Assembly (NCBI GenBank): GCA_977862235.1 | Contig: OZ374558.1 | Span: forward strand, 1,426,001-1,490,000 | DNA: 64,000 nucleotides | DNA from: Dudresnaya verticillata | Taxonomy: Eukaryota | Reading direction: 5' to 3' | In this document: one piece after another, positions 8,000-33,994 of the stretch | How positions within the stretch are numbered: position 1 is the stretch's first letter | How the letters are laid out: each line of letters opens with the position of its first letter | The notes under the pieces: model-generated | Seen by the model: only the letters and a program-made list of their open reading frames with translations | The model's database searches: none | Told to the model about the DNA's origin: nothing | Position numbers and translations under genes: made by a program

Positions 8000-8218
8000 A
8001 TGCCACCGAAAAATAAGAAGGGAGTGGGGGTGAGGTCTGTATCCAACACAGGACATACCTCATCAGACATAAGAGCGCCTGCATCATCTCGGAATGACAG
8101 AGTTCTGTTCGGAGATGTAATTAATGGAGCTACACACAAGCGAGTCGACCCTCGTTCATGTGTCCCGTTGATCTACGTCCGCCCGATCTGCAGATCGGGC
8201 GTTGAGCGATTGAAGCGC
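8000..8218 (+). pseudogene. ParB-like/DNA methyltransferase gene, piece A (N-terminus)
   Basis: ATG at 8000, MPPKNKK..PLIYVRPICRSGVERLKR; cut by a solo LTR with TSD AGCGC and resumes at 9257. Confidence 0.7.
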
Positions 8219-9251
8219 TGTTGAGGACATGGTCGCTGGCGCCTCACGTCACGGGTCAGGCACCCCAGATGGCACCCTGGCACGCTGTCACCAAACCTTC
8301 CGGAGACGACAGCCCTTTTTCCGGGCTTCCAAAATCACGGCGCATTTAGGCCTTTTGCAAAAGCAACGTGAAACGGGCTTCTGATTGGTTGTTACAAACC
8401 GCCTCCATGGTCTATATGGCTTACAAGTGTTGTGCTGGAATTGGCGGTTATAACAGGAACGGCCAAGTGGAACGATCTGATTGGACCACATGGATGCACG
8501 TGGTATGGCATGGAATGGTGTTGGTATGACTCGCACTGTACTCCACAAGTACACATGAACGTGCCATGCAATGTGCTGATGGCGTCCGAGTTGGTACTGC
8601 AGGGACTTGCGCTACGTGGAGCCTGACTTGTGATATCAGCAGATGCAGTTGTTGTGCGGCCGACACGTTGGTTTACAGTTAACACGTAGCTGTCGTGCGG
8701 CCGACACGTTGGTTTACAGTTATCACGTAGCTGTCGTGCGGCCGATACGTTGGTTTACAGCTGCCACGTAGGCAAATCTGGGTGATTACGTGGTCAATGA
8801 TCCAAGTTGGATATTCATGGACGGACTTCAGCTGGTAAGTGCGGCCACGTGGTGTGCAGTGTTGTCCGACAGCAGCCATGCGGGGACACTCGATACTTTC
8901 ACGTTCCCGCCCAAAGTTGGAGTACATATGGATGGCAGGAAATGCGGTCGCAAGAGGGATTGCTGATGTCAGCAGTTAGCAACACTGGTGTGCAAGTTCC
9001 CGCCCATTTTGGTGGCGGATGTGAGTGTGCTGAGAGCATGATTTGGTAGATTTAATTGCTTTACTTTTTCCCGCCCATTTGATGATAGGGATTTTGGGCG
9101 TTTCTTCAATGATTTGTTTTGTTTGTGTTCACGCAGCAACTCATCCGAAAAGCTGATATAAGCCATGTCGGATGGTCGACTGCAGTAAACGAAGTCAAGC
9201 GACTTCCATTTCTCATCTTGTTCAACTCCAACCTCTCCATATTCCTTTTCA
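8219..9251 (+). mobile_element. Solo copia LTR (1033 bp)
   Basis: TG..CA termini, AGCGC at 8214-8218 and 9252-9256, no PBS or PPT alongside. Confidence 0.97.
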
Positions 9252-9256
9252 AGCGC

Positions 9257-10613
9257 ATTTTCCGAGGGACCGACCGGTATAGTTCAGGGACGTTGGAGTC
9301 TCCCGTGGAAGGATTCCGGACCCTGTCGGGTACGTGGCTGGTAGCGACATGCCTGTCATTGTGCCCTTGACAGGGGCATTGAGAAGCCGCGTGTCCGAGT
9401 ATTTCAGGTCACAAATAAGGAAGGACTGTACGCATCGTTCCGAGAAAGAAGTTCAGGACATTGTGAAATCGAGGACGAAGTGGTATGGAGTAGTTGATGG
9501 CATGCATCGACTGGCAGCTATTTGTGAGCTGCTTGAAGATGACTACGAGCAGTGGAAAACATTTGAATGGCCAGTGCTGGAGCTGAACCCGCGGACCGAG
9601 CTAGTGGTTCTGAAGCAATTCGCAAGACATCAGAATCGCAAACACGAGGCAGACTGCGTCGTGGAAACTACCCTGTATAACACTTTAAAGGGTCTGAAAG
9701 ATGAGGCTGATCGCCTGCAAGCTGAAGCAAATGGGGCCAAGCCGACAGCAAAAGCGGTTGCGTCCGCTTACGATGGGGGTGTCCACATGCACGAGAACAC
9801 AGTGAAGCAGACAGCGCAAGTATCTCTCAGATTGAGCCATAGTGTCGTCGATATAGTAGGGGAGATAATGGGGGAAGAAATACCGCAGCTTGTACTGGCT
9901 TCACGGAATGGTAGAAGTTCTAAATCCGTAGCAGACGATGCCCTGATGTCGTCAATGGACTGCCGGGTTTTCAGGAAATTCATTACCCTGAACTCGCTAA
10001 AGGCTGCCACAGAGTTCATGCGCGCGGGACAAGGGGGTGGTGTGATACATAATAAGGGTGTGGAAGTCCAAATCGCGACATTGTACCGCCTTCGAGAAGT
10101 GTGCAGGAAGAACGGGTTCAGGCCTGTTCTTTACGGGGTCACGAAATCAGAGTTCGGGAAAGCTAAAGATGCGTTTGCAGAGGTTCGAAAATTCGAATGC
10201 CTTCGTGAGTCTGTAGACTGGCCGGGTCCTATGGAAACGATGCGGACAAATCTTCTGCGATCCCAAAAGTTTGATGCTGATATCATGCTTAACAGGGGCA
10301 ATGACACATTGGTTTTGCAGTGCATTCTAGATATGTACAAGGACTGTTGTCCGGAAGAAGCCCCCCTGAAGATCCACAAGTACAATTCTGTTAGAGAAAA
10401 GAACAGAAAGGAGGGCGACGAGGAGATGGCTTTGGATCAGGGGGATTTGAATGGAATTGCGACGGGAGTGCAAGATTCGGGGTGTGTGAATTCCGATCAG
10501 GTAACGACCGTTCGAAACACGGAACATCCCCAAGATGGACAGGAAGAACATGAACACGTATCCTCTCCTTCTGCCAATCTAGAGTCGTTACCTTGCAGTG
10601 GGGACCTTGGTTC
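9257..10613 (+). pseudogene. ParB-like/DNA methyltransferase gene, piece B (ParB-like domain plus helical region)
   Basis: ORF 9334 onward contains WYGVVDGMHRLAAI (9481-9522), the ParB/Srx-type DGxHR motif. It is open until the LTR at 10614. Confidence 0.75.
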
Positions 10614-13600
10614 TAAAAGGAATATGGAGAGGTTGGAGTTGAACAATGAAGATGAGAAATGGAAGTCGCTTGACTTCGTTTACTGCAGTCGACCATCCGA
10701 CAAGGCTTATATCAGCTTTTCGGATGAGTTGCTGCGTGAACACAAACAAAACAAATCATTAAAGATACGCCCAAAATCCCTACCGTCAAATGGGCGGGAA
10801 AAAGTAAAGCAATCAAATCTACCAAATCATACTCTCAGCACACTCACATCCGCCACCAAAATGGGCGGGAACTTGCACACCAGTGTTGCTAACTGCTGAC
10901 ATCAGCAATCCCTCTTGCGACCGCATTTCCTGCCATCCATATGTACTCCAACTTTGGGCGGGAACTCGAAAGTATCGAGTGTCCCCCCGCATGGCTGCTG
11001 TCGGACAACACTGCACACCACGTGGCCGCACTTACGAGCTGAAGTCCGTCCATGAATATCCAACTTGGATCATTGACCACGTAATCACCCAGATTTGCCT
11101 ACGTGGCAGCTGTAAACCAACGTGTCGGCCGCACGACAGCTACGTGCCCACTGTAAACCAACGTGTCGGCCGCACGACAGCTACGTGGCAACTGTAAACC
11201 GACGTGTCGGCCGCACGACAACTGCATCTGCTGATATCACAAGTCAGGCTCCACGTAGCGCAAGTCCCTGCAGTACCAACTCAGACGCCATCAGCACATT
11301 GCATGGCACGTTCATGTGTACTTGTGGAGTACAGTGCGCGTCATACCAGTACCATTCCATGCCATACCACGTGCATCCATGTGGTCCAATCAGATCGTTC
11401 CACTTGGCCGTTCCTGTTATAACCGCCAATTCCAGCACAACACTTGTAAGCCATATAGACCATGGAGGCGGTTTGTAACAACCAATCAGAAGCCCGTTTC
11501 ACGTTGCTTTTGCAAAAGGCCTAAATGCGCCGTGATTTTGGAAGCCCGGAAAAAGGGCTGTCGTCTCCGGAAGGTTTGGTGAAAGCGTGCCAGGGTACCA
11601 TCTGGGGTACCTGACCCGTGACGTGAGGCGCCAGCGACCATGTCCTCAACACTCCTCCTCGATGGCTCCTCCAAGTCCAACCCTTGGTAGAATCCTATTG
11701 AGCAAAGTGGGCCCGAGTGGCTTTGTCAGCAAGTCCGCGTCGTTGTCTTCTGACGGCACATACACCACTTCCAGAACAGAGTCGGCGATAAGTTCGCGAA
11801 TGAAGTGTACACGAACGTCGATTTGCTTGGCACGACCAGACGGACAGCGTTCTCCAGTAGCCCAATTGATGGCAGACTGGTTGTCTGATCTCAATGGAAC
11901 CGGGCCTTCGACGTTCAAGTCGGCCTCCTTCAGCACTCGCGTGACCCAAACCGTCTCTTTCGCAGCCAGAGTCATTGCATAGTACTCCGACTCTCAAGTT
12001 GAGAGAGCAACAGTTGACTGCTTCTTGCATCCCCAAATACACACTGCATCTCCCAGTTTCACCATGTAACCAGACATAGATTTTCGGTCTGTGGTGTCAC
12101 CGGCATAGTCAGCGTCCACATAAGCTTGGATACGAGTGCTTCCGGACTGGTACGTAACTCCATGCTTGTGAGTGCCTCGAAGATATCGCAGAACCCTCTT
12201 TGCACCACGGTGACAGTACTCAGTTGGAGCCTTCTGGAACCGTGCGAGGATAAGCACAGAGGCCAAAATGTCCAGCCTTGTGCGAAGCCCCAAGTACAGA
12301 AGTGACCCGATCATCTGCTGGTACGTCTCAACCGACACGACGGCCTTGTCCTCTTCGGCGGCAAGTCCAGTGAAGAAAGACTCAACCATCGGCGTACAAG
12401 CCGGCTTAGAGTTCTGAAGTCCAAATCGACGAAGAACACTTTCCGTGTAGACCTGTTGAGTCATCTTGAGGGACACAAATCTGCCATCAGAGTCTAGCTT
12501 CCATCCAAGCTCTACTCCGAGGAAGAGGTCAACCCCTTCAGACAGCCGTAGATCGTAGAGGCCCTGCAGTTCCTTAACAATGGCGTCTCTCTCCGCCTTT
12601 GTGGGTGCGAGGATGAGCAAGTCATCAACGTACACCAAGATGTATGCGTATCCAGAAGACTTGGATTTGCGACGAAACACGCAAGGTGCACTTGGCAATT
12701 CCTCAAACGTCATCCTAGCAAGGTCACCACACGGCTTGGTGTGCCAAGCTAGGTGAGCCTGTTTTAGCCCATACATAGCCTTCAGAAGTTTGTAACAGAG
12801 AGATTCCCTTCCAGGAATCCCACGCGGTGACATTACCCACACGTGTTCTGCCAGATCACTATTCAGGAAAGCCGTCTTCACGTCTAGCTGTGCAACAAAC
12901 AGGTTCAAACACAGTACAAAGTATAGGAACATGCGCACCAGCGAGAACGACACAACTGGGGCGTATGTTTCCATGTAGTCTTCACCATACGTCTGGAAGT
13001 TTCCACCAGCGACGACCCGCGCTTTGAAGCGCTCGACCGTCCCGTCGGACTTGCGTTTAACTTTCAGCACGGCGTGCGTTGGAAGCGGCTGTGCATCGGG
13101 ACTGTCATCACGGACCCAAGTGCCTTTGGATTCCAAGGATGCGAACTCATCATCAATGGCAGATTGCCACAACCCGCGCTCCTCCGGAGTGGCAGACATG
13201 GCCTCTCGAAGAGTGGGCTCATCTCCCGTTGTGAGGGCAACCTGTTGTTCAGCTTGTGCAGAGCTTGCCATAAACCATTTCGACGTCTGGCGACGTTGGC
13301 GACGAGGATATCGACTCTGTTGCTGGCGTTCTGGATCTGAACTCACACCAGCCGGAGGACTGTCAGAGACGTTTTCTTCCTCAGCCGTGTCATCAGATTC
13401 GAATGAGCTGGGTTCTCATGGAGGTAGTGGAGGTGAAGAATGTTGAGGACATGGTCGCTGGCGCCTCACGTCACGGGTCAGGTACCCCAGATGGTACCCT
13501 GGCACGCTTTCACCAAACCTTCCGGAGACGACAGCCCTTTTTCCGGGCTTCCAAAATCACGGCGCATTTAGGCCTTTTGCAAAAGCAACGTGAAACGGGC

Positions 13601-13872
13601 TTCTGATTGGTTGTTACAAACCGCCTCCATGGTCTATATGGCTTACAAGTGTTGTGCTGGAATTGGCGGTTATAACAGGAACGGCCAAGTGGAACGATCT
13701 GATTGGACCACATGGATGCACGTGGTATGGCATGGAATGGTACTGGTATGACGCGCACTGTACTCCACAAGTACACATGAACGTGCCATGCAATGTGCTG
13801 ATGGCGTCTGAGTTGGTACTGCAGGGACTTGCGCCACGTGGAGCCTGGCTTGTGATATCAGCAGATGCAGTT

Positions 13873-13954
13873 GTCGTGCGGCCGACACGTTGGTTTACAG
13901 TTGCCACGTAGGTGTCGTGCGGCCGACACGTTGGTTTACAGCTGCCACGTAGGC
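13873..13954 (+). repeat. 41-bp tandem repeat in LTR U3 (2 copies here, 2-4 in other LTRs)
   Basis: Unit GTCGTGCGGCCGACACGTTGGTTTACAGTTGCCACGTAGCT; LTR lengths 992/1033/1074 differ by exactly 41. Confidence 0.95.
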
Positions 13955-14337
13955 AAGTCTGGGTGATTACGTGGTCAATGATCCAAGTTGGATATTCATG
14001 GACGGACTTGAGCTGGTAAGTGCGGCCACGTGGTGTGCAGCGTTGTCCGACAGCAGCCATGCGGGGACACTCGATACTTTCACGTTCCCGCCCAAAGTTG
14101 GAGTACATATGGATGGCAGGAAATGCGGTCGCAAGAGGGATTGCTGATGTCAGCAGTTAGCAACACTGGTGTGCAAGTTCCCGCCCATTTTGGTGGCGGA
14201 TGTGAGTGTGCTGAGAGTATGATTTGGTAGATTTAATTGCTTTACTTTTTCCCGCCCATTTGATGATAGGGATTTTGGGCGTTTCTTTAATGATTTGTTT
14301 TGTTTGTGTTCACGCAGCAACTCATCCGAAAAGCTGA

Positions 14338-14343
14338 TATAAG
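14338..14343 (+). promoter_or_regulatory. Candidate LTR TATA box
   Basis: TATAAG about 90 bp before the LTR 3' end, present in all LTR copies; position is plausible but untested. Confidence 0.4.
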
Positions 14344-14432
14344 CCATGTCGGATGGTCGACTGCAGTAAACGAAGTCAAGCGACTTCCATTTCTCATCTT
14401 GTTCAACTCCAACCTCTCCATATTCCTTATCA

Positions 14433-14446
14433 GGTTATGGGCCCAG
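14433..14446 (+). promoter_or_regulatory. Primer-binding site complementary to the anticodon arm of initiator tRNA-Met (half-tRNA priming)
   Basis: GGTTATGGGCCCAG directly after the LTR is the reverse complement of CUGGGCCCAUAACC in eukaryotic tRNA-iMet. Also at 24148, 31924, 40788, 47458 and 57352. Confidence 0.9.
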
Positions 14447-15368
14447 AAGGTCGACCTACGCAGACTTCATCGCTTCGCTGCAACCTTCTTCCTTTTTCTT
14501 TTCATTCTTGATACTGTCCGGTCCCGTCCTGGCCTGTCCTGTCTGCTTGTGTCCTGTCCTGTCGGCTTGTGTCCTGTCCTGTCTGCTTGTTGTCTGTTGA
14601 AAGTGGTCCCTATCCCACTGTGTCGGCTTGTGTCTCTGATTTTGTGAGAGAGTTCTCGAGGCTCTCGTCCGCTGTTGTCTTGGTCCGTGAGCTTGCTGAG
14701 AGGTTGAGTGTTGTGCGTGGTGACTCTCGTTAAGTCAGGACCTCGTTGGCCTAGGGGAGCAGCCTCCAGTAAGATCCAGAACCTTGACACGGTTGGGCCT
14801 AGTTCCATTCCTGCAAGAGACTGGACCTGTTCGTGTGGTGAACACTCGTTTTGAGTTAGTACCCATAAGGTGGACGTCTCGTAAGGATTGCATACTTCGT
14901 GTCTGTGTGCGCACGACACGAAAGGGCTGCTGAAAGACGCATTTCACCCGGAGAATCATATCCGGGGGCCAGGAGTCCGACTCCTAGGGGTGACTAGGTA
15001 GAACCTGGTGCCAGAACATCCCGCGTCAAAAAGACGTTCAACTATCAAGAATCAACTTTTCAACTTCAAGTTTCAACTTTTCTTCTTCAGTCCAGGTGAT
15101 CCCATCATCACCTGAGAGTTTCATTACTCCAAGCGTGGGAGCTACTTGGCAAAGTGTGCTCCGCTTGTGACTGTATTATATTACCGACGTGTTCGACACA
15201 TTTCTCAGTTTCGTCGTCACGTCTTCGTTGTGTGAGCTGCACTGCTCTGCTTAACACGACTATTACCCTCTGGGCATCGACACTGTTGCACTAACAGCAC
15301 TGCCCCAAGTTTACCAAGTTTTCTAAAACTATTCAAGTTATCTCTTCTCACCATCAGTCCCAACAGCG

Positions 15369-18300
15369 ATGACTGATACCGAAGCCGAGATGGATACTTC
15401 GAGCGGGGTCAAGATACCCCGTTTCCACGGCAGGAGAGGTGACGACTACAGTCTCTGGCGTCATCGCCTTCGTGCCGCATGCCGCATCAAAGGGGTTTGG
15501 AATGTTGTCCACACCTCAAACGACACACCGAGCAGCTCACAGTCAACTGGAGAGGCCTCAGCGGATACTTCCATTCTTCACGCCAGAACCTTGGCCAAAC
15601 GTGAGAAGGCTTGCGGGATCATTATCTCCGCACTTGGTGATGCTCCGCTTCGTGTCGTTATGGAGGTTGATGATGACCCCAAACGCATGCTGGAGCTATT
15701 GGACTCGCGCTATGCGTCCAGTCGAACCGTATCCCGTATCGCCGTACAGACCAAGCTATTCCGTATGACGTACACCGGTCAGAATATGTCCAACTATGTC
15801 GACCAGTACACGTCACTGTTCGCCCAACTCGACCGCATGGGCAACGACTCGGCGATACCGGAGACACATAAGGCACCTATGCTGCTTGCTTCCATTGATC
15901 CGTCCTGCCACCTGGAGTCAACAGCTGCAGCTCTTCGCACCAAAGATGCTGCTGAGCTGACTTGGGACTACGTCGCAACCACGCTGATCGATGAGTACAA
16001 CGCCAAAGATTCTCATGGATCAAACACAGGTGGGAGATCCAGTAAGTCGAAGAGTCGTCGCAAGAAGAAAAAGAAGTCCGCGTCGTCAGGTTCTCGCCAG
16101 CAACACAACACGCTGGATGACAACGACGACTCCGATGACTCTTCTGATATTGAATCCACCGTCCGTGCGTTGGCGGTTGCACTCAAGTCCGCCAAGCAGG
16201 CTCACTCCACCCCGAACCGGCACCTTCACTGTGATGTTTGCGACAAGGATGGACACACCGCGGATCGATGCTATCTCAATCCGGAAAATCCTAACAACAA
16301 GCTTCCTCCAAAGGTGCGACAGATGTTCACCAACCAGGGCAAAAAGGGCAACGCCAACTCGGCGGTAGCTGCATCTGGTAAGAATAATGGTAAATCTGCA
16401 AAGGTAGAAATCGCCGGTGCATCGGTTGAGATGACTACTGTTGTTCCTCCGAACGACCAAGGAACGTATGCCGACAGTGGAGCAACTGTGCATTGCTTCC
16501 ACTCAATGACTTCTTTTGTACCGAGCTCAGTATCACGCTGCGAAAAGCGTACTGTAGTGCTTGCGGACAAGTCGTCTGTCACCTCAGACCTATGTGGAGA
16601 TGTGATTCTGCCGTTTGAGCATGCCAATATTCGGCTCAAGAAGGCCCTCTTCATCCCGCAGATGGGATACAATCTTGTCTCTACTGGGCGTTTGGCAGAT
16701 AAAGGAATTGAATCCCACTTTCGCCGCTTGGACGTGCGCTTGGTACTCGACTCTGATGGGTACTATATTGGATCCGGTGTTCGCGATGCGAGTTCTGGAA
16801 TGTACATGCTACCAGAACCCGAGCCGCACACTTCGGAGGAGCAAGTACTGGCTGTCCCCAGCACGCAGCAAACTACTGAGCTCTGGCATCGACGTCTTGC
16901 CCACATTAATTTTCGGGACTTGGCCAAAGTGCACGAGCATGTTGAGGGTGTTCCGGAGTTGGGCTCCACTCATGAAGTGTGTCGGGCTTGTAGACTTGGG
17001 AAAGCACACAAACAATCATTCCCAGGGCACTTCCGCCCGGCCAAAGCTGTCGGTGATCTCGTGCATTCCGACATTGTGGGTCCAATCCAGATCTCCTTTC
17101 CCGATCGTTTCCGGTATGCCACGACGTTTCTGGATGACAAATCCCGTTTCTTGGTCGTCGCATGTATGAGAAGTCGCCGTATGTTGAGTGCAGCATTTGA
17201 TCAAGCTTCAGCAAAGTTTATCGAGCTTGGAGGAGCGGAAATAACAAAACTCCACTCAGACGGGGCTCAGGAGTATTTGGCTTTGCAGAAAGATTTGGGA
17301 GGAGTTGGAGACAGTGGCAAATCCTTCTCCCCACCTTATACTCCGGAGCTCAATGGAATCGCGGAAAGGGTGAACCGAACCATGGTGGAAGCTGCCCTGA
17401 CTTTGCTGATCCAGGCTGATCTACCGGGATGTTTGTGGCCGTTTGCACTGAAGCATGTCAACTACGTGCGCAATCGGGTACCACACTCAACCGTTGGGGC
17501 TACGCCATACTCGGTCATGACAGGTGATGTTCCTGATTTAAAACATTTAAGAGTGTTTGGATGTGCTGCATATGTCCTAAGGCTCCCACGCGGATCCAAG
17601 TTCGAGTCTCGTGCACTTGAGGGGGTGCACTTGGAGACTCTAGAGCATGGGATCTACAGGATATTGGTCACTGGCGGTGACGGTATACCTCGTGTGGTTG
17701 AGTCGCGGCATGTCACATTCGACGAGTCCAAATTCCCGGGTGCTCCAAGCCTGTTGGAATATGGGCAGGATGAGGCAGATTCGGATGAAGATTACGAGTC
17801 TAACTCAGAGGCCTCTATTTTCAACTCGGACTCTGATGACGATGTGTCGCTGGGTAACTTTGAGGATGAAGAGGATGCAATTGAAGTTGACACACCTTCT
17901 TCACCTCCACTACCTCCATCAGAACCCAGCTCATTCGAATCTGATGACACGGCTGAGGAAGAAAACGTCTCTGACTATCCTCCGGCTGGTGTGAGTTCAG
18001 ACCCAGAACGCCAGCAACAGAGTCGATATCCTCGTCGCCAACGTCGCCAGACGTCGAAATGGTTTATGGCAAGCTCTGCACAAGCTGAACAACAGGTTGC
18101 CCTCACAACGGGAGATGAGCCCACTCTTCGAGAGGCCATGTCTGCCACTCCGGAGGAGCGCGGGTTGTGGCAATCTGCCATTGATGATGAGTTCGCATCC
18201 TTGGAATCCAAAGGCACTTGGGTCCGTGATGACAGTCCCGATGCACAGCCGCTTCCAACGCACGCCGTGCTGAAAGTTAAACGCAAGTCCGACGGGACCG

Positions 18301-22600: not shown

Positions 22601-25153
22601 TCAGCGTGGTTGCGACGTAGTCCCAAGTCAGCTCAGCAGCATCTTTGGTGCGAAGAGCTGCAGCTGTTGACTCCAGGTGGCAGGACGGATCAATGGAAGC
22701 AAGCAGCATAGGTGCCTTATGTGTCTCCAGTATCGCCGATTCGTTGCCCATGCGGTCGAGTTGGGCGAATAGTGACGTGTACTGGTCGACATAGCTGGAC
22801 ATATTCTGACCGGTGTACGTCATACGGAATAGCTTGGTCTGTACGGCGATACGGGATACGGTTCGACTGGACGCATAGCGCGAGTCCAATAGCTCCAGCA
22901 TGCGTTTGGGGTCATCATCAACCTCCATAACGACACGAAGCGGAGCATCACCAAGTGCGGAGATAATGATCCCGCAAGCCTTCTCACGTTTGGCCAAGGT
23001 TCTGGCGTGAAGAATGGAAGTATCCGCTGAGGCCTCTCCAGTTGACTGTGATAGTGAGCTGCTCGGTGTGTCGTTTGAGGTGTGGACAACATTCCAAACC
23101 CCTTTGATGCGGCATGCGGCACGAAGGCGATGACGCCAGAGACTGTAGTCGTCACCTCTCCTGCCGTGGAAACGAGGTATCTTGACCCCGCTCGAAGTAT
23201 CCATCTCGGCTTCGGTATCAGTCATCGCTGTTGGGACTGATGCTGAGAAGAGATAACTTGAATAGTTTTAGAAAACTTGGTGAACTTGGGGCAGTGCTGT
23301 TAGTGCAACAGTGTCGATGCCCAGAGGGTAATAGTCGTGCTAAGCAGAGCAGTGCAGCTCACACAACGAAGACGTGACGACGAAACTGAGAAATGTGTCG
23401 AACACGTCGGTAATATAATACAGTCACAAGCGGAGCACACTTTGCCAAGTAGCTCCCACGCTTGGAGTAATCAAACTCTCAGGTGATGATGGGATCACCT
23501 GGACTGAAGAAGAAAAGTTGAAACTTGAAGTTGAAAAGTTGATTCTTGATAGTTGAACGTCTTTTTGACGCGGGATGTTCTGGCACCAGGTTCTACCTAG
23601 TCACCCCTAGGAGTCGGACTCCTGGCCCCCGGATATGATTCCCCGGGTGAAATGCGTCTTTCAGCAGCCCTTTCGTGTCGTGCGCACACGGACACGAAGT
23701 ATGCAATCCTTACGAGACGTCCACCTTATGGGTACTAACTCAAAACGAGTGTTCACCACACGAACAGGTCCAGTCTCTTGCAGGAATGGAACTAGGCCCA
23801 ACCGTGTCAAGGTTCTGGATCTTACTGGAGGCTGCTCCCCTAGGCCAACGAGGTCCTGACTTAACGAGAGTCACCACGCACAACACTCAACCTCTCAGCA
23901 AGCTCACGGACCAAGACAACAGCGGACGAGAGCCTCGAGAACTCTCTCACAAAATCAGAGACACAAGCCGACACAGTGGGATAGGGACCACTTTCAACAG
24001 ACAACAAGCAGACAGGACAGGACACAAGCCGACAGGACAGGACACAAGCAGACAGGACAGGCCAGGACGGGACCGGACAGTATCAAGAATGAAAAGAAAA
24101 AGGAAGAAGGTTGCAGCGAAGCGATGAAGTCTGCGTAGGTCGACCTTCTGGGCCCATAACCTGAAAAGGAATATGGAGAGGTTGGAGTTGAACAAGATGA
24201 GAAATGGAAGTCGCTTGACTTCGTTTACTGCAGTCGACCATCCGACAAGGCTTATATCAGCTTTTCGGATGAGTTGCTGCGTGAACACAAACAAAACAAA
24301 TCATTAAAGAAACGCCCAAAATCCCTATCATCAAATGGGCGGGAAAAAGTAAAGCAATTAAATCTACCAAATCATACTCTCAGCACACTCACATCCGCCA
24401 CCAAAATGGGCGGGAACTTGCACACCAGTGTTGCTAACTGCTGACATCAGCAATCCCTCTTGCGACCGCATTTCCTGCCATCCATATGTACTCCAACTTT
24501 GGGCGGGAACTCGAAAGTATCGAGTGTCCCCGCATGGCTGCTGTCGGACAACACTGCACACCACGTGGCCGCACTTACGAGCTGAAGTCCGTCCATGAAT
24601 ATCCAACTTGGATCATTGACCACGTAATCACCCAGATTTGCCTACGTGGCAGCTGTAAACCAACGTGTCGGCCGCACGACACCTACGTGGCAACTGTAAA
24701 CCAACGTGTCGGCCGCACGACAACTGCATCTGCTGATATCACAAGCCAGGCTCCACGTAGCGCAAGTCCCTGCAGTACCAACTCAGACGCCATCAGCACA
24801 TTGCATGGCACGTTCATGTGTACTTGTGGAGTACAGTGCGCGTCATACCAGTACCATTCCATGCCATACCACGTGCATCCATGTGGTCCAATCAGATCGT
24901 TCCACTTGGCCGTTCCTGTTATAACCGCCAATTCCAGCACAACACTTGTAAGCCATATAGACCATGGAGGCGGTTTGTAACAACCAATCAGAAGCCCGTT
25001 TCACGTTGCTTTTGCAAAAGGCCTAAATGCGCCGTGATTTTGGAAGCCCGGAAAAAGGGCTGTCGTCTCCGGAAGGTTTGGTGAAAGCGTGCCAGGGTAC
25101 CATCTGGGGTACCTGACCCGTGACGTGAGGCGCCAGCGAGCATGTCCTCAACA

Positions 25154-25307
25154 CGTTTACTGCAGTCGACCATCCGACAAGGCTTATATCAGCTTTTCGG
25201 ATGAGTTGCTGCGTGAACACAAACAAAACAAATCATTAAAGATACGCCCAAAATCCCTACCGTCAAATGGGCGGGAAAAAGTAAAGCAATCAAATCTACC
25301 AAATCAT
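25154..25307 (-). mobile_element. Remnant of an older copia LTR
   Basis: LTR-internal sequence sharing private variants (CCCTACCGTCAAAT, GCAATCAAAT) with LTR 10614; truncated at 25307. Confidence 0.9.
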
Positions 25308-25914
25308 CAGATGCGGTGGCAGATATTCGACAAGAATGTTCGCGAGGGTTTTGGGGACTTATACGACGCAGTTCTTACCGACACACCGTATGGAACGCCT
25401 GCATCACAGTCCGGTGCAGGGAAACAGTACGACAACTATATGAGTGATTCTGAAGTATCTGAGCTTGCAGAAATGTGCAGGCAATCCGTTGTGCCGGGAG
25501 GGTGGGTGTTCATGTTCGTGTCCTACCAGACATTCGAACCTATAAGGAAGGCTCTTCCCAAGGCTGGATTCATTTGCCCAACGTACGCCTTTTCGATTGT
25601 AAAGGATACACGCACGGCTCAAGAGAGGCGGGGAAATGACTGTCCCCAAAATGGCCATGAAATTGCCGTCATGGGAAGAGCCCCAGGGCAGCACCCTAAA
25701 GGCTTCCGAGTGGATCTTCGAAGCCCATACCAATTTGTGAAGGCCTCCGAAAAGAGAAAGTTTGCATGCATGTCCCAAATTCCTGTTTCTAAGAATAAGC
25801 TTCTTAAACCGGGTACCAAATCTCCGGTGCTTACGGAGGAGAAGAATGTTCAGCTGTTAGTGGAATTGTTGACGACCTTCTGCCCTGAGGGAGGTGCCAT
25901 TCTGGACATGTATG
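25308..25914 (+). pseudogene. ParB-like/DNA methyltransferase gene, piece C (amino-MTase catalytic region)
   Basis: YDAVLTDTPYG (motif IV, DPPY-like, 25380-25391), VVPGGWVFMF, EKNVQLLVELLTTFCPEGGAILDMY; typical N6_N4_Mtase pattern. Confidence 0.85.
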
Positions 25915-28900
25915 TGTAAAGGAATATGGAGAGGTTGAAGTTGAACAAGATGAGAAATGGAAGTCGCTTGACTTCGTTTACTGCAGTCGACCATCCGACA
26001 AGGCTTATATCAGCTTTTCGGATGAGTTGCTGCGTGAACACAAACAAAACAAATCATTAAAGATACGCCCAAAGTCCCTATCATCAAATGGGCGGGAAAA
26101 AGTAAAGCAATTAAATCTACCAAATCATGCTCTCAGCACACTCACATCCGCCACCAAAATGGGCGGGAACTTGCACACCAGTGTTGCTAACTGCTGACAT
26201 CAGCAATCCCTCTTGCGACCGCATTTCCTGCCATCCATATGTACTCCAACTTTGGGCGGGAACGTGAAAGTATCGAGTGTCCCCGCATGGCTGCTGTCGG
26301 ACAACACTGCACACCAAGTGGCCGCACTTACCAGCTCAAGTCCGTCCATGAATATCCAACTTGGATCATTGACCACGTAATCACCCAGATTTGCCTACGT
26401 GGCAGCTGTAAACCAACGTATCGGCCGCACGACAGCTACGTGATAACTGTAAACCAACGTGTCGGCCGCACGACAGCTACGTGCCAACTGTAAACCAACG
26501 TGTCGGCCGCACAACAGCTACGTGCCAACTGTAAACCAACGTGTCGGCCGCACAACAACTGCATCTGCTGATATCACAAGTCAGGCTCCACGTAGCGCAA
26601 GTCCCTGCAGTACCAACTCGGACGCCATCAGCACATTGCATGGCACGTTCATGTGTACTTGTGGAGTACAGTGCGAGTCATACCAACACCATTCCATGCC
26701 ATACCACGTGCATCCATGTGGTCCAATCAGATCGTTCCACTTGGCCGTTCCTGTTATAACCGCCAATTCCAGCACAACACTGGTAAGCCATATAGACCAT
26801 GGAGGCGGTTTGTAACAACCAATCAGAAGCCCGTTTCACGTTGCTTTTGCAAAAGGCCTAAATGCGCCGTGATTTTGGAAGCCCGGAAAAAGGGCTGTCG
26901 TCTCCGGAAGGTTTGGTGACAGCGTGCCAGGGTGCCATCTGGGGTGCCTGACCCGTGACGTGAGGCGCCAGCGACCATGTCCTCAACACTCCTCCTCGAT
27001 GGCTCCTCCAAGTCCAACCCTTGGTAGAATCCTATTGAGCAAAGTGGGCCCGAGTGGCTTTGTCAGCAAGTCCGCGTCGTTGTCTTCTGACGGCACATAC
27101 ACCACTTCCAGAACAGAGTCGGCGACAAGTTCGCGAATGAAGTGTACACGAACGTCGATGTGCTTGGCACGACCAGACGGAAAGCGTTCTCCAGTAGCCC
27201 AATTGATGGCAGACTGGTTGTCTGATCTCAATGGAACCGGGCCTTCGACGTTCAAATCGGCCTCCTTCAGCACTCGCGTGACCCAAACCGTCTCTTTCGC
27301 AGCCAGAGTCATTGCATAGTACTCCGACTCGCAAGTTGAGAGAGCAACAGTTGACTGCTTCTTGGATCCCCAAATACACACTGCATCTCCCAGTTTCACC
27401 ATGTAACCAGACATAGATTTTCGGTCTGTGGTGTCACCGGCATAGTCAGCGTCCACATAAGCTTGGATACGAGTGGTTCCGGACTGGTACGTAACTCCAT
27501 GCTTGTGAGTGCCTCGAAGATATCGCAGAACCCTCTTTACACCACGGTGACAGTACGCAGTTGGAGCCTTCTGGAACCGTGCGAGGATAAGCACAGAGGC
27601 CAAAATATCCAGCCTTGTGCGAAGCCCCAAGTACAGAAGTGACCCGATCATCTGCTGGTACGTCTCAACCGACACGACGGCCTTGTCCTCTTCGGCGGCA
27701 AGTCCAGTGAAGAAAGACTCAACCATCGGCGTACAAGCCGGCTTAGAGTTCTGAAGTCCAAATCGACGAAGAACACTTTCCGTGTAGACCTGTTGAGTCA
27801 TCTTGAGGGACACAAATCTGCCATCAGAGTCTAGCTTCCATCCAAGCTCGACTCCGAGGAAGAGGTCAACCCCTTCAGACAGCCGTAGATCGTAGAGGCC
27901 CTGCAGCTCCTTAACAATGGCGTCTCTCTCCGCCTTTGTGGGCGCGAGGATGAGCAAGTCATCAACGTACACCAAGATGTATGCGTATCCAGAAGACTTG
28001 GATTTGCGACGAAACACGCAAGGTGCACTTGGCAATTCCTCAAACATCATCCTAGCAAGGTCACCACACAGCTTGGTGTGCCAAGCTAGGTGAGCCTGTT
28101 TTAGCCCATACATAGCTTTCAGAAGTTTGTAACAGAGAGATTCCCTTCCAGGAATCCCACGCGGTGACATTACCCACACGTGTTCTGCCAGATCACCATT
28201 CAGGAAAGCCGTCTTCACGTCTAGCTGTGCAACAAACAGGTTCAAACACAGTACCAAGTATAGGAACATGCGCACCAGCGAGAACGACACAACTGGGGCG
28301 TATGTTTCCATGTAGTCTTCACCATACGTCTGGAAGTTTCCACCAGCGACGACCCGCGCTTTGAAGCGCTCGACGGTCCCGTCGGACTTGCGTTTAACTT
28401 TCAGCACGGCGTGCGTTGGAAGCGGCTGTGCACCGGGACTGTCATCACGGACCCAAGTGCCTTTGGATTCCAAGGATGCGAACTCATCATCAATGGCAGA
28501 TTGCCACAACCCGCGCTCCTCCGGAGTGGCAGACATGGCCTCTCGAAGAGTTGGCTCATCTCCCGTTGTGAGGGCAACCTGTTGTTCAGCTTGTGCAGAG
28601 CTTGCCATAAACCATTTCGACGTCTGGCGACGTTGGCGACGAGGATATCGACTCTGTTGCTGGCGTTCTGGATCTGAACTCACACCAGCCGGAGGACTGT
28701 CAGAGACGTTTTCTTCCTCAGCCGTGTCATCAGATTCGAATGAGCTGGGTTCTGATGGAGGTAGTGGAGGTGAAGAAGGTGTGTCAACTTCAATTGCATC
28801 CTCTTCATCCTCAAAGTTACCAAGCGATACATCGTCATCAGAGTCCGAGTTGCAAATAGAGGCCTCTGAGTTAGACTCGTAATCTTCATCCGAATCTGCC

Positions 28901-31900
28901 TCGTCCTGCCCATATTCCAACAGGCTTGGAGCACCCGGGAATTTGGACTCGTCGAATGTGACATGCCGCGACTCAACCACACGAGGTATACCGTCACCGC
29001 CAGTGACCAATATCCTGTAGATCCCATGCTCTAGAGTCTCCAAGTGCACCCCCTCAAGTGCACGAGACTCGAACTTGGATCCGCGTGGGAGCCTTAGGAC
29101 ATATGCAGCACATCCAAACACTCTTAAATGTTTTAAATCAGGAACATCACCTGTCATGACCGAGTATGGCGTAGCCCCAACGGTTGAGTGTGGTACCCGA
29201 TTGCGCACGTAGTTGACATGCTTCAGTGCAAACGGCCACAAACATCCCGGTAGATCAGCCTGGATCAGCAAAGTCAGGGCAGCTTCCACCATGGTTCGGT
29301 TCACCCTTTCCGCGATTCCATTGAGCTCCGGAGTATAAGGTGGGGAGAAGGATTTGCCACTGTCTCCAACTCCTCCCAAATCTTTCTGCAAAGCCAAATA
29401 CTCCTGAGCCCCGTCTGAGTGGAGTTTTGTTATTTCCGCTCCTCCAAGCTCGATAAACTTTGCTGAAGCTTGATCAAATGCTGCACTCAACATACGGCGA
29501 CTTCTCATACATGCGACGACCAAGAAACGGGATTTATCATCCAGAAACGTCGTGGCATACCGGAAACGATCGGGAAAGGAGATCTGGATTGGACCCACAA
29601 TGTCGGAATGCACGAGATCACCGACAGCTTTGGCCGGGCGGAAGTGCCCTGGGAATGATTGTTTGTGTGCTTTCCCAAGCCTACAAGCCCGACACACTTC
29701 ATGAGTGGAGCCCAACTCCGGAACACCCTCAACATGCTCGTGCACTTTGGCCAAGTCCCGAAAATTAATGTGGGCAAGACGTCGATGCCAGAGCTCAGTA
29801 GTTTGCTGCGTGCTGGGGACAGCCAGTACTTGCTCCTCCGAAGTGTGCGGCTCGGGTTCTGGTAGCATGTACATTCCAGAACTCGCATCGCGAACACCGG
29901 ATCCAATATAGTACCCATCAGAGTCGAGTACCAAGCGCACGTCCAAGCGGCGAAAGTGGGATTCAATTCCTTTATCTGCCAAACGCCCAGTAGAGACAAG
30001 ATTGTATCCCATCTGCGGGATGAAGAGGGCCTTCTTGAGCCGAATATTGGCATGCTCAAACGGCAGAATCACATCTCCACATAGGTCTGAGGTGACAGAC
30101 GACTTGTCCGCAAGCACTACAGTACGCTTTTCGCAGCGCGATACTGAGCTCGGTACAAAAGAAGTCATTGAGTGGAAGCAATGCACAGTTGCTCCACTGT
30201 CGGCATACGTTCCTTGGTCGTTCGGAGGAACAACAGTAGTCATCTCAACCGATGCACCGGCGATTTCTACCTTTGCAGATTTACCATTATTCTTACCAGA
30301 TGCAGCTACCGCCGAGTTGGCGTTGCCCTTTTTGCCCTGGTTGGTGAACATCTGTCGCACCTTTGGAGGAAGCTTGTTGTTAGGATTTTCCGGATTTAGA
30401 TAGCATCGATCCGCGGTGTGTCCATCCTTGTCGCAAACATCACAGTGAAGGTGCCGGTTCGGGGTGGAGTGAGCCTGCTTGGCGGACTTGAGTGCAACCG
30501 CCAACGCACGGACGGTGGATTCAATATCAGAAGAGTCATCGGAGTCGTCGTTGTCATCCAGCGGGTTGTGTTGCTGGCGAGAACCTGACGACGCGGACTT
30601 CTTTTTCTTCTTCCGACGACTCTTCGACTTACTGGATCTCCCACCTGCGTTTGATCCATGAGAATCTTTGGCGTTGTACTCATCGATCAGCGTGGTTGCG
30701 ACGTAGTCCCAAGTCAGCTCAGCAGCATCTTTGGTGCGAAGAGCTGCAGCTGTTGACTCCAGGTGGCAGGACGGATCAATGGAAGCAAGCAGCATAGGTG
30801 CCTTATGTGTCTCCGGTATCGCCGAGTCGTTGCCCATGCGGTCGAGTTGGGCGAACAGTGACGTGTACTGGTCGACATAGTTGGACATATTCTGACCGGT
30901 GTACGTCATACGGAATAGCTTGGTCTGTACGGCGATACGGGATACGGTTCGACTGGACGCATAGCGCGAGTCCAATAGCTCCAGCATGCGTTTGGGGTCA
31001 TCATCAACCTCCATAACGACACGAAGCGGAGCATCACCAAGTGCGGAGATAATGATCCCGCAAGCCTTCTCACGTTTGGCCAAGGTTCTGGCGTGAAGAA
31101 TGGAAGTATCCGCTGAGGCCTCTCCAGTTGACTGTGAGCTGCTCGGTGTGTCGTTTGAGGTGTGGACAGCATTCCAAACCCCTTTGATGCGGCATGCGGC
31201 ACGAAGGCGATGACGCCAGAGACTGTAGTCGTCACCTCTCCTGCCGTGGAAACGGGGTATCTTGACCCCGCTCGAAGTATCCATCTCGGCTTCGGTATCA
31301 GTCATAGCTGTTGGGACTGATGGTGAGAAGAGATAACTTGAATAGTTTTAGAAAACTTGGTGAACTTGGGGCAGTGCTGTTAGTGCAACAGTGTCGATGC
31401 CAAGAGGGTAATAGTCGTGTTAAGCAGAGCAGTGCAGCTCACACCCTTTCGTGTCGTGCGCACACAGACACGAAGTATGCAATCCTTACGAGACGTCCAC
31501 CTTATGGGTACTAACTCAAAACGAGTGTTCACCACACGAACAGGTCCAGTCTCTTGCAGGAATGGAACTAGGCCCAACCGTGTCAAGGTTCTGGATCTTA
31601 CTGGAGGCTGCTCCCCTAGGCCAACGAGGTCCTGACTTAACGAGAGTCACCACGCACAACACTCAACCTCTCAGCAAGCTCACGGACCAAGACAACAGCG
31701 GACGAGAGCCTCGAGAACTCTCTCACAAAATCAGAGACACAAGCCAACACAGTGGGATAGGGACCACTTTCAACAGACAACAAGCAGACAGGACAGGACA
31801 CAAGCCGACAGGACAGGACACAAGCAGACAGGACAGGCCAGGACGGGACCGGACAGTATCAAGAATGAAAAGAAAAAGGAAGAAGGTTGCAGCGAAGCGA

Positions 31901-33011
31901 TGAAGTCTGCGTAGGTCGACCTTCTGGGCCCATAACCTGTAAAGGAATATGGAGAGCTTGAAGTTGAACAAGATGAGAAATGGAAGTCGCTTGACTTCGT
32001 TTACTGCAGTCGACCATCCGACAAGGCTTATATCAGCTTTTCGGATGAGTTGCTGCGTGAACACAAACAAAACAAATCATTAAAGATACGCCCAAAGTCC
32101 CTATCATCAAATGGGCGGGAAAAAGTAAAGCAATTAAATCTACCAAATCATGCTCTCTGCACACTCACATCCGCCACCAAAATGGGCGGGAACTTGCACA
32201 CCAGTGTTGCTAACTGCTGACATCAGCAATCCCTCTTGCGACCGCATTTCCTGCCATCCATATGTACTCCAACTTTGGGCGGGAACGTGAAAGTATCGAG
32301 TGTCCCCGCATGGCTGCTGTCGGACAACACTGCACACCAAGTGGCCGCACTTACCAGCTCAAGTCCGTCCATGAATATCCAACTTGGATCATTGACCACG
32401 TAATCACCCAGATTTGCCTACGTGGCAGCTGTAAACCAACGTATCGGCCGCACGACAGCTACGTGATAACTGTAAACCAACGTGTCGGCCGCACGACAGC
32501 TACGTGCCAACTGTAAACCAACGTGTCGGCCGCACAACAGCTACGTGCCAACTGTAAACCAACGTGTCGGCCGCACAACAACTGCATCTGCTGATATCAC
32601 AAGTCAGGCTCCACGTAGCGCAAGTCCCTGCAGTACCAACTCGGACGCCATCAGCACATTGCATGGCACGTTCATGTGTACTTGTGGAGTACAGTGCGAG
32701 TCATACCAACACCATTCCATGCCATACCACGTGCATCCATGTGGTCCAATCAGATCGTTCCACTTGGCCGTTCCTGTTATAACCGCCAATTCCAGCACAA
32801 CACTTGTAAGCCATATAGACCATGGAGGCGGTTTGTAACAACCAATCAGAAGCCCGTTTCACGTTGCTTTTGCAAAAGGCCTAAATGCGCCGTGATTTTG
32901 GAAGCCCGGAAAAAGGGCTGTCGTCTCCGGAAGGTTTGGTGACAGCGTGCCAGGGTGCCATCTGGGGTGCCTGACCCGTGACGTGAGGCGCCAGCGACCA
33001 TGTCCTCAACA
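25915..33011 (-). mobile_element. Full-length copia element E3 inserted in MTase motif I
   Basis: LTRs 25915-26988 and 31938-33011 (1074 bp, about 3 differences seen); TSD GTATG at 25910-25914 and 33012-33016. Confidence 0.98.
26983..31305 (-). CDS. Copia gag-pol polyprotein, 1440 aa
   Basis: Intact ORF with all motifs, near-identical to 15369-19691. Confidence 0.98.
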   Translation of the reverse strand: MTDTEAEMDTSSGVKIPRFHGRRGDDYSLWRHRLRAACRIKGVWNAVHTSNDTPSSSQSTGEASADTSILHARTLAKREKACGIIISALGDAPLRVVMEVDDDPKRMLELLDSRYASSRTVSRIAVQTKLFRMTYTGQNMSNYVDQYTSLFAQLDRMGNDSAIPETHKAPMLLASIDPSCHLESTAAALRTKDAAELTWDYVATTLIDEYNAKDSHGSNAGGRSSKSKSRRKKKKKSASSGSRQQHNPLDDNDDSDDSSDIESTVRALAVALKSAKQAHSTPNRHLHCDVCDKDGHTADRCYLNPENPNNKLPPKVRQMFTNQGKKGNANSAVAASGKNNGKSAKVEIAGASVEMTTVVPPNDQGTYADSGATVHCFHSMTSFVPSSVSRCEKRTVVLADKSSVTSDLCGDVILPFEHANIRLKKALFIPQMGYNLVSTGRLADKGIESHFRRLDVRLVLDSDGYYIGSGVRDASSGMYMLPEPEPHTSEEQVLAVPSTQQTTELWHRRLAHINFRDLAKVHEHVEGVPELGSTHEVCRACRLGKAHKQSFPGHFRPAKAVGDLVHSDIVGPIQISFPDRFRYATTFLDDKSRFLVVACMRSRRMLSAAFDQASAKFIELGGAEITKLHSDGAQEYLALQKDLGGVGDSGKSFSPPYTPELNGIAERVNRTMVEAALTLLIQADLPGCLWPFALKHVNYVRNRVPHSTVGATPYSVMTGDVPDLKHLRVFGCAAYVLRLPRGSKFESRALEGVHLETLEHGIYRILVTGGDGIPRVVESRHVTFDESKFPGAPSLLEYGQDEADSDEDYESNSEASICNSDSDDDVSLGNFEDEEDAIEVDTPSSPPLPPSEPSSFESDDTAEEENVSDSPPAGVSSDPERQQQSRYPRRQRRQTSKWFMASSAQAEQQVALTTGDEPTLREAMSATPEERGLWQSAIDDEFASLESKGTWVRDDSPGAQPLPTHAVLKVKRKSDGTVERFKARVVAGGNFQTYGEDYMETYAPVVSFSLVRMFLYLVLCLNLFVAQLDVKTAFLNGDLAEHVWVMSPRGIPGRESLCYKLLKAMYGLKQAHLAWHTKLCGDLARMMFEELPSAPCVFRRKSKSSGYAYILVYVDDLLILAPTKAERDAIVKELQGLYDLRLSEGVDLFLGVELGWKLDSDGRFVSLKMTQQVYTESVLRRFGLQNSKPACTPMVESFFTGLAAEEDKAVVSVETYQQMIGSLLYLGLRTRLDILASVLILARFQKAPTAYCHRGVKRVLRYLRGTHKHGVTYQSGTTRIQAYVDADYAGDTTDRKSMSGYMVKLGDAVCIWGSKKQSTVALSTCESEYYAMTLAAKETVWVTRVLKEADLNVEGPVPLRSDNQSAINWATGERFPSGRAKHIDVRVHFIRELVADSVLEVVYVPSEDNDADLLTKPLGPTLLNRILPRVGLGGAIEEEC

Positions 33012-33016
33012 GTATG

Positions 33017-33597
33017 CCGGAACGATGACAACTGGAATTGCAGCTATGCAGACTGGTAGGAAGTGCACCTGCATAGAGCAGAGTCTACAGACGTACAGGC
33101 TTGCAGTTGCACGCTTGAAAAGGATAGCAGGTGATCATCGCAAATTGTCGGATGGGAGGGAAGGAACACCACTGTGCCCTGATAGAGAGGAACAGGCCCT
33201 GGGAGAAGACCAGGGAGCGGCTGTGGAAATTCCGCAACAGAAACTGCTCGGGAATGAGGCGGAGAAGGATTCGGATTGTATTGCAGGAGGCGATGCTGTT
33301 GTTCTGTACGTCGGTAAGAACATTGTTGGGAAGGCAAAAGTCCAATTCGGGGCAACTTCTGAAGAAAAGGTTCGCAAGCAGATTCATCTGAAGCCCCTGT
33401 CGGAATACGAAAAGGCAGGACAGGAACTCATTGCGGTTTACGCCTTCGAATGTGATTCATCCTTTACCACGTTAGCGTATCCTTATAACTTTCATGTTCC
33501 GAACGGCCGCCCTGCCACGAGCCTAGGTAGGCTAGACGGATTCTTTGCACGGGATCTCCATGCGATGGAAGCCCATGCGCGATGCGAGCAGAAATGA
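33017..33597 (+). pseudogene. ParB-like/DNA methyltransferase gene, piece D (SAM-binding motif I plus C-terminal domain)
   Basis: Removing E3 and one TSD gives in-frame ILDMYAGTMTTGIAAMQTGRKCTCIE, followed by a linker and a ~90-aa domain; stop at 33595-33597. Confidence 0.85.
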
Positions 33598-33951: not shown

Positions 33952-33994
33952 GCGGGTCACAGCACTCGAGTGCTGTGACCCGCACAGATCTGTG
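33952..33994. repeat. Perfect 32-bp palindrome plus adjoining 12-bp palindrome
   Basis: GCGGGTCACAGCACTC|GAGTGCTGTGACCCGC (33952-33983), then CACAGATCTGTG (33983-33994). Confidence 0.95.

Follow-up and report, generated by a model that had tools for sequence, protein, structure and literature searches.

The DNA analysed here, a 64,000-nucleotide window of Dudresnaya verticillata (contig OZ374558.1 of assembly GCA_977862235.1, positions 1,426,001 to 1,490,000, forward strand), holds four coding segments separated by copia retrotransposons, and raises the question of what these segments once encoded and what kind of genetic entity carried them. A first-pass annotation had read them as the remains of one gene, in which a ParB-like module is fused to a beta-class DNA amino-methyltransferase. 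We find that they do form one gene, that the gene is dead, and that it exposes a large unnamed family that lies outside all the prokaryotes searched, in which a predicted ParB-fold module is fused to what appears to be an adenine methyltransferase of the beta class.

Four pieces of one gene

Self-comparison of the window shows that its DNA is mostly one young copia family and that few unique stretches remain, the four gene pieces among them. The non-repeated stretches between copia DNA are 7737-8217, 9253-10612, 25308-25912 and 33013-39753, and the pieces and the insertions between them are as follows.

8000-8218, plus strand: piece A, with the ATG and the first 73 codons, comprising the start of the ParB-like domain and an R..S.SGV helix
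8219-9251, plus strand: solo copia long terminal repeat (LTR) of 1033 bp, with the target-site duplication (TSD) AGCGC at 8214-8218 and 9252-9256
9257-10613, plus strand: piece B, with the predicted ParB/Srx core (DGMHR, QN), a likely helix-turn-helix, a helical domain and the start of an acidic linker
10614-25307, no strand assigned: nested copia cluster between pieces B and C
10614-25153, minus strand: copia element that holds the plus-strand copia 13441-20677
13441-20677, plus strand: copia element with TSD AAGAA and identical LTRs
25154-25307: LTR fragment, an extra partial LTR in tandem, outside the complete element 10614-25153
25308-25914, plus strand: piece C, the portion of the beta-class methyltransferase that runs from motif IV (DTPY) into the first part of motif I
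25915-33011, minus strand: full-length copia of 7097 bp with TSD GTATG and an open 1454-codon gag-pol frame
33017-33597, plus strand: piece D, with the rest of motif I, a linker and the C-terminal beta-rich domain, ending in a stop codon at 33595-33597

The self-comparison bears out the four plus-strand, non-copia segments of the first-pass annotation. The two joins that it had fixed by TSDs are indeed flanked in this way, AGCGC bracketing the solo LTR 8219-9251 and GTATG bracketing the copia 25915-33011 (whose LTRs differ at 3 of 1074 bases), and the reading frame is kept across the join between C and D, as claimed. Pieces A to D sum to 2764 bases, or 921.3 codons (about 920 had been estimated), and the motifs VDGMHR, TDTPY and DMY/AGT occur in the expected order. 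The join between B and C lacks a TSD, again as described, with GGTTC on the left and CGTTT plus the LTR fragment 25154-25307 on the right.

The link from B to C and D, which had so far been based on order and strand, is settled by the homologues. A search with piece B returned seven longer homologues of 887-1042 residues, unbroken and all containing PF01555, and each of the seven matches A, B, C and D in this order on the window in tblastn searches, with 36-50% identity over piece A. For one of them, P0004, the E-values on the four pieces are 2e-10, 4e-90, 3e-62 and 4e-21, which excludes chance matches. Because the pieces are colinear with all seven unbroken homologues, B and C/D belong to one gene; uninterrupted homologues in which they are separate genes did not appear, nor did the methyltransferase and ParB matches fail. 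That the four pieces make up a single ParB-methyltransferase gene is thus as near to certainty as anything reported here. Some homologues seemed to consist of the N-terminal part only, but the clusters of P0042, P0177 and P0178 also contain members of 971-1015 residues, so that these are truncated copies.

The window copy is, with hardly less confidence, a dead pseudogene: copia has inserted at three sites, a deletion and a break of the frame have added to the damage, and DTPY replaces DPPY. Across the join of A and B the reading does not pass into the long B frame, which lies one base out of register, but meets a stop 37 codons on, at 9368. The homologue spacing would fit the loss of frame by one base near 9325-9331, and a short GT-AG intron of 35-68 nt could alternatively restore the frame. 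The deletion proposed at the join of B and C is apparent from the linker, which has 71 residues in the window vs 108-158 in six close homologues; judging from these lengths, it seems to have taken roughly 40-90 codons along with the TSD, and a conserved G-I/V stretch just ahead of the methyltransferase core is missing as well. Motif IV reads DPPY in 9 of the 10 rows of the methyltransferase alignment, the exception being the window, where DTPY stands in place of an intact (D/N/S)PP(Y/F/W) motif. Trees were built without the near-duplicates P0011-P0017 and all partial proteins, and later ones also without P0120. In them the window read-through groups with nine homologues, all of which keep DGxxR and DPPY (Shimodaira-Hasegawa-like approximate likelihood ratio test, 98), and forms the longest branch of this group; it breaks 15 of 131 invariant columns, while 13 relatives break 0-7.4%. 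Being a pseudogene, the window copy cannot be the DNA-modifying writer for which it had been taken. No sequencing run is listed as matching piece B, which has no bearing on expression.

The LTR pairs of the copia elements differ by only 0, 0.28 and 0.81%, which marks the insertions as recent. Three copia copies with about 99% DNA identity retain open 1454-codon gag-pol frames (15327-19691, 26983-31347 and 41378-45742), indicating that the family was recently active; its closest labelled relative is EukProt IDg2470t1, at 44%, a label that may belong to a red-algal gene. The copia structure at 39755-47145 has an extra partial tandem LTR (46811-47145) outside the complete element, and since the TSD CTCTA brackets the whole structure, insertion into an LTR followed by collapse is suggested. 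A perfect 22-bp palindrome lies within piece A at 8180-8201, 17 bases ahead of the solo-LTR insertion site.

The two halves of the protein

By its sequence, the C-terminal half is a beta-class amino-methyltransferase, as motif IV lies N-terminal to motif I both in pieces C-D and in the homologues. The profile comparison agrees with the class assigned in the first pass, in that PF01555 matches all but one of the 52 full-length homologues with E-values of at most 0.05 (3.6e-16 for the strongest match) and P0004 scores 52.3 bits with a cut-off of 26.7. Alone, pieces C and D of the window score 19.3 and 12.9 bits; piece C covers profile positions 2-189 (E 0.0012, below the curated cut-off), and piece D covers the adjoining positions 189-219. 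The nearest solved sequences and folds are the beta-class adenine enzymes M1.HpyAVI (E 3e-18), M.BceJIV, CcrM and M.MboIIA, which likewise have a DPPY motif IV before motif I. Comparison of methyltransferase folds gave Z 11.3 and a root-mean-square deviation (rmsd) of 3.7 over 158 aligned residues with a low-confidence model, and a first model of the whole protein was poor, with a predicted local distance difference test score (pLDDT) of 49.

According to the accessible part of a study of the bdelloid enzyme N4CMT, DPPY is typical of bacterial enzymes that make N6-methyladenine (6mA) and SPPY, the motif of N4CMT, of those that make N4-methylcytosine (4mC), with the caution that this methyltransferase domain has switched specificity repeatedly (PMC8885841). 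Since DPPY is the motif of the family, its enzymes probably make 6mA, and by analogy we lean towards the view that DPPY members write 6mA in DNA. Of the 6mA/4mC class originally proposed, the 6mA part is therefore favoured, and the 4mC part finds no support, SPPY being present in 0 of the 52 full-length homologues.

For the N-terminal half, Pfam gave only weak hints of DndB and GmrSD_N, and the fold of piece B was assigned from a model of the homologue P0042, built from 105 aligned rows (pLDDT 83, predicted template modelling score 0.75). The top 10 Foldseek rows for this model are all ParB or Noc (best E 4.6e-3), with 7bnr_A at rank 4. A wide structural search placed PadC first (Z 11.1, rmsd 3.9, 121 aligned), followed by Pnob8 ParB-N (Z 9.2), KorB (9.1), sulfiredoxin (8.9) and SerK (8.2); the KorB alignment extends over residues 59-383 (rmsd 6.8, 179 aligned), and the six rows after PadC are also of ParB/Srx type. 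Both rankings lead to a predicted ParB/Srx fold. The ParB-like module of the first-pass annotation is thereby matched to ParB, Noc, PadC, KorB and sulfiredoxin, and its view that prokaryote-type domains lie inside a eukaryotic genome is upheld.

GxxR is the nucleotide-binding motif of the ParB/Srx superfamily, and the family has a motif of this type together with a downstream Asn, seen as DGMHR and QN in the window; the motif Arg occupies 52% of filled cells in the 105 rows, where R75 reaches 99%, G168 98% and N213 89%, and the DG of DGxxR falls within this range. The conserved Asn may be the equivalent of N136 of Caulobacter ParB, which is required for CTP (cytidine triphosphate) binding in the portion of the report available (PMC8367383). 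Overall, the family shares with ParB, Noc, KorB and PadC the predicted fold, the GxxR-type motif and the conserved Asn, and a putative helix-turn-helix would follow the core; it differs from them in its low identity (10-18%), in having no ParA partner and in being fused to an enzyme.

Two further observations concern this half. The helical domain after the ParB part (residues 274-397 of the P0042 model) is weakly like AAA+ lid domains in many rows (Z 4.5-6.4), a likeness that may reflect a common arrangement only. Atlas leads for piece B, all at 0.92, comprise clusters with a DGQHR domain and one fungal cluster, where 22% of the members have DUF3723.

The family, its probable carriers and known systems

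When 1.84 billion representatives were searched with a single query, 144 clusters (clustered at 50% identity) were retrieved at E ≤ 1e-30. The homologues are intron-free open frames (as single-frame calls); the members looked up come from assemblies of metagenomes and reads, in which their contigs are 1-14 kb long. Unbroken, motif-complete candidates exist in the family, for example P0003-P0008 and P0173. The rarity claimed for eukaryotic co-option of this enzyme class does not hold in view of these 144 clusters and of the PF01555 and ParB-like genes already known on red-algal DNA transposons.

Among phages, 113 records match P0004 and none covers 80% of the query, in a tblastn search that may miss a distant ParB domain; the 25 rows listed match the methyltransferase part only (residues 546-828), at ≤31% identity. 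No close relative among phage ParB-methyltransferase fusions turned up in this search. The N-domain has no tblastn match in plasmids, and short-pattern scans gave no confirmed relative in JGI metagenomes or, with N-domain patterns, in GTDB; a scan of 11 of 64 parts of GTDB with methyltransferase patterns returned only distant enzymes. In IMG/VR, pattern-limited scans for the N-domain or the methyltransferase covered 2.9 million contigs and gave no confirmed relative either. For prokaryotic beta-class enzymes, identity is 22-28% at 76 of 77 loci. These enzymes are short (83 frames of 178-458 residues), none has the family N-domain, and in the tree 74 of the 83 frames stand on a side apart from the 30 family rows.

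Because no close relative was found in the prokaryotes, phages and plasmids searched, and because the window contains copia elements and a PDS5 fragment, the homologues would appear to be eukaryotic. Many diverse, broken copies on short contigs fit repeats. From context and literature, the unbroken relatives are probably transposon cargo, and on the same grounds the host of the family is with similar probability red-algal.

The closest comparison is with accessory genes carried by giant Plavaka, Mutator and Zisupton elements of red algae and described in a preprint on Bostrychia moritziana (bioRxiv 10.1101/2025.02.11.637652). In its available text, Plavaka accessory gene 2 (PAG2) combines PF01555 with SET and is mobile among element families; a position within 15 kb of a Plavaka or other transposase is a further mark of it. 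PAG3 combines a ParB-like domain (best match 7BNR) with a putative 2-oxoglutarate oxygenase; it adjoins inverted-repeat arrays, and its proposed role is to bind the element that carries it and to modify that element. The same work raises the question of how transposons in red algae evade silencing (bioRxiv 10.1101/2025.02.11.637652). The present family resembles PAG2 in having a PF01555 methyltransferase in a repeat-rich, probably red-algal setting and, compared by description only, differs in that PAG2 has SET and no ParB described, whereas the present family has a ParB-fold N-terminus and another C-terminal domain. It resembles PAG3 in its ParB-like N-terminal domain, for which 7BNR is likewise among the matches, and in an adjacent inverted-repeat or palindromic array, and differs in its effector, which is a methyltransferase instead of an oxygenase; no oxygenase profile was found in the homologue scans, in which the domain after the ParB part is PF01555. 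The family thus appears to pair a PAG3-like address domain with a PAG2-like writer, with an array beside the gene.

The similarity to PAG2 suggests that the gene might simply be PAG2, its SET domain being absent or on a separate exon and the ParB-like N-terminus having been missed as PAG2 had InterPro only. This is a serious possibility, to which we give a little less than even weight. PAG2 is defined by PF01555 and moves among element families, HHpred is reported for PAG1 and PAG3 only in the text available, and the Bostrychia preprint is the only text in the literature searched with both PF01555 and rhodophytes. However, SET (PF00856) was detected in 0 of 162 distinct homologue proteins, whose single-frame calls would miss a spliced exon, and in none of the six frames of 33598-39755, and in the homologues it is a different domain, rich in beta structure, that precedes the stop codon. 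Since SET is lacking, the family is not filed here as PAG2, of which it may nevertheless represent a form with an overlooked N-terminus. Identity with PAG2 would be compatible with the mechanism considered below and would lower its novelty, not the mechanism itself.

The bdelloid N4CMT and a Marchantia 4mC enzyme are also beta-class PF01555 enzymes of bacterial origin in a eukaryote; N4CMT is described in the accessible text as a domesticated host gene with SPPY and a chromodomain that marks transposons (PMC8885841), whereas the present family is large and probably transposon-borne, with DPPY and a ParB module, and no chromodomain profile was found in its full-length homologues. DIRS and LTR retrotransposons that carry DAM are, like the proposed carriers, eukaryotic transposons with prokaryote-type adenine methyltransferases, and they have been proposed to exploit 6mA chromatin (bioRxiv 10.64898/2026.05.21.726589). 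They differ in that their Dam-type NPP domains lie inside the element, whereas the copia elements of the window destroyed the gene and do not carry it; the terms ParB, Plavaka and N6_N4 are absent from the preprint text at hand (bioRxiv 10.64898/2026.05.21.726589). In the available part of Iyer et al. (2016), fusion to a helix-turn-helix of the ParB type is listed only for an unrelated chlorophyte Dam clade (PMC4738411), and the accessible parts of PMC12695648 and PMC11244446 hold nothing on the present family. A ParB-methyltransferase pairing in a eukaryote was not found in the literature searched, which excludes most subscription journals and Repbase reports, and the supplements of the Bostrychia preprint may already show it. 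The family is best placed within a known kind, that of transposon-borne, DNA-modifying accessory genes, to which it would add a ParB-methyltransferase architecture not found in print in the literature searched.

A neighbouring array, a possible mechanism and its alternatives

Two palindromic features lie downstream of the gene.

33952-33983, no strand assigned: perfect palindrome of 32 bp
34090-34380, no strand assigned: degenerate palindromic array, with CTATNATAG and CTRTTNAAYAG boxes alternating at a period of 73 bp

The array starts about 500 bp beyond the stop codon and has its symmetry centre at 34234. Its periodicity (autocorrelation 0.387) was reached in 0 of 500 simulations, taking the best of 128 windows, and its symmetry (0.493) exceeds the simulated maximum of 0.46, with 0 of 625 simulations reaching it over all centres in 13.6 kb of non-copia DNA. 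These simulations are the fair tests of the array, rather than the count of CTATNATAG (4 vs 0.24 expected), which was set aside because it was chosen post hoc and a single tandem duplication accounts for two of the four. From context and literature, the array can be regarded as a candidate loading site, and only tentatively as the place where a clamp loads. An interpretation as a miniature inverted-repeat transposable element found no support, since there is no terminal repeat with a TSD. The box pattern has no exact match in IMG/VR. An exact tandem duplication of a 19-bp unit with the palindrome TTTCTATAATAGAAA is found at 35813-35851, and the CTATNATAG core is common to it and the array.

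The observations to be explained are one gene, its domain order and lesions, the size and separateness of its family, and the array. In the explanation that we favour, the unbroken protein would ride as cargo on a red-algal DNA transposon and bind the palindromic array beside its own gene through the helix-turn-helix; the clamp would then close on a nucleotide, likely CTP, as ParB does, and slide, and S-adenosylmethionine (SAM)-dependent N6-adenine methylation would be deposited along its own element, in cis. The likely benefit would be self-marking, by which the element stays transcribed or recognisable to its transposase. Taken as a whole, with the window copy as a dead gene and its relatives as red-algal cargo that load on an array and write 6mA in cis, this account seems to us evenly balanced between right and wrong. 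We regard the fullest version, a ParB-type CTP clamp and 6mA writer on red-seaweed transposons with parS-like array loading, sliding and cis methylation, as unlikely.

If true, this would be an epigenetic writer that addresses itself and whose components are all prokaryotic, giving a jumping gene a means, not described so far, of setting an epigenetic mark on itself. It would also mean that ParB/parS spreading is at work in the nucleus of a eukaryote and that its effectors can be exchanged (a methyltransferase here, an oxygenase in PAG3), and the clamp model would imply a natural site-loaded, spreading DNA writer. The window copy itself has no function; it is the family and the candidate loading site that make the question of escape from silencing testable.

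The DNA around the gene, which bears on this explanation, contains the following features.

3056-4463, minus strand: frameshifted frames with a low-complexity start, a Myb/SANT-like stretch and a coiled coil
4514-7736, no strand assigned: block of 3.2 kb, 263 bp upstream of the ATG, recurring at 58684-61915
33280-33570, plus strand: beta-rich C-terminal domain of about 100 residues, of no known family, within piece D (family hidden Markov model (HMM), independent E-value 3.5e-19)
35126-35647, plus strand: broken fragment of the N-terminus of PDS5, a cohesin subunit (PF20168 E 5e-17; human PDS5B E 3e-5)
37100-38300, minus strand: frameshifted, coiled-coil-rich coding remnant with no Pfam match
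38482-39510, plus strand: second broken gene with one internal stop, beginning with the beta-rich domain that ends piece D

Several observations weigh against the favoured explanation. No transposase, terminal inverted repeat or element TSD was found in the 11.4 kb of non-copia flank, which is bounded by copia DNA on both sides, and the PDS5 fragment, located 1.5 kb downstream, may point to ordinary DNA of the host. No Foldseek row for the N-domain reaches E 0.001 or better, structural rows for the helix-turn-helix alone (residues 220-286) are weak (Z ≤ 4.6), and ParB/Srx folds also occur in kinases and reductases (SerK, SbnI and Srx rows). DPPY is present in only 14 of the 52 full-length members and DPPF in 2, and 27 of 57 members lack both the ParB and the methyltransferase motif while their frames are open, so that catalysis may not be selected family-wide. 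Furthermore, adenine methyltransferases from other transposons did not produce 6mA in E. coli, according to the text available (bioRxiv 10.64898/2026.05.21.726589).

These motif losses lead to a structural alternative, in which the selected function is that of a DNA-binding or clamp protein that aids transposition or the spread of copies, a mostly decayed methyltransferase serving as a DNA- or SAM-binding module. It accords with the lack of both DPPY and DPPF in 36 of the 52 full-length members, which fall into several deep clades and have open frames 770-1186 residues long, and with the finding that losses of the active-site motifs show no coupling once the tree is considered. An apparent coupled loss of the ParB and DPPY motifs (18 with both, 27 with neither, 8 and 4 mixed; Fisher p 2e-5) did not stand as an established result, since independent tree pairs gave a median p of 1, although 5-6 pairs are too few to exclude such coupling. 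However, in the clade of the window DGxxR, QN, DPPY and DxYxG have persisted through 40-60% sequence divergence, which would be difficult to account for if there were no catalysis, and we judge a purely structural role to be unlikely.

We consider it quite improbable that the family is a domesticated host one, an algal chromatin 6mA writer of which one pseudogenised paralogue lies beside a PDS5 remnant. The nearby PDS5 fragment and the flanks without transposase or element ends would suit such a history, but there are at least 144 clusters at 50% identity, many of them broken or motif-less, the upstream block is repeated in the window, the C-terminal domain is common to the second nearby gene, and the piece of PDS5 is broken too and may be host DNA that the carrier element picked up. 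Viruses commonly have beta-class methyltransferases and ParB-like domains, and arrival as part of a large endogenous DNA virus or a polinton-like element in a counter-defence role would be in keeping with the PHROG methyltransferase matches and intron-free frames; it is very improbable, given no confirmed relative in the pattern-limited IMG/VR scans, no viral hallmark in the flanks and no PHROG match for an N-domain homologue.

Returning to transposon cargo, the 3.2-kb block is possibly the left part of a carrier element. Its two copies (4514-7736 and 58684-61915) are 4% diverged, with 129 substitutions and 12 indels, and the second is cut by a copia LTR. The block holds two or three minus-strand frames (4554-7738), of 300 and 304 codons plus shorter, with no significant match in Pfam, NCBIfam or PHROG. 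A CACTA-type end at 4520 was discounted, as the second copy lacks it and there is no matching right end.

The C-terminal beta-rich domain received no assignment in Pfam or NCBIfam and no usable Atlas match, and a likeness to the C-terminal domains of CACTA TnpA-type proteins was abandoned for want of support from the same three sources. BLASTP of its two window copies against each other gave no match; the second gene is nonetheless recognised by the family HMM (independent E-value 8.4e-16 at 38575-38886) and by tblastn of P0009 (E 3e-7). Finally, the Myb/SANT-like stretch within 3056-4463 (minus strand) has no Pfam match, and together with the coiled coil it resembles the layout of Harbinger-type accessory proteins.

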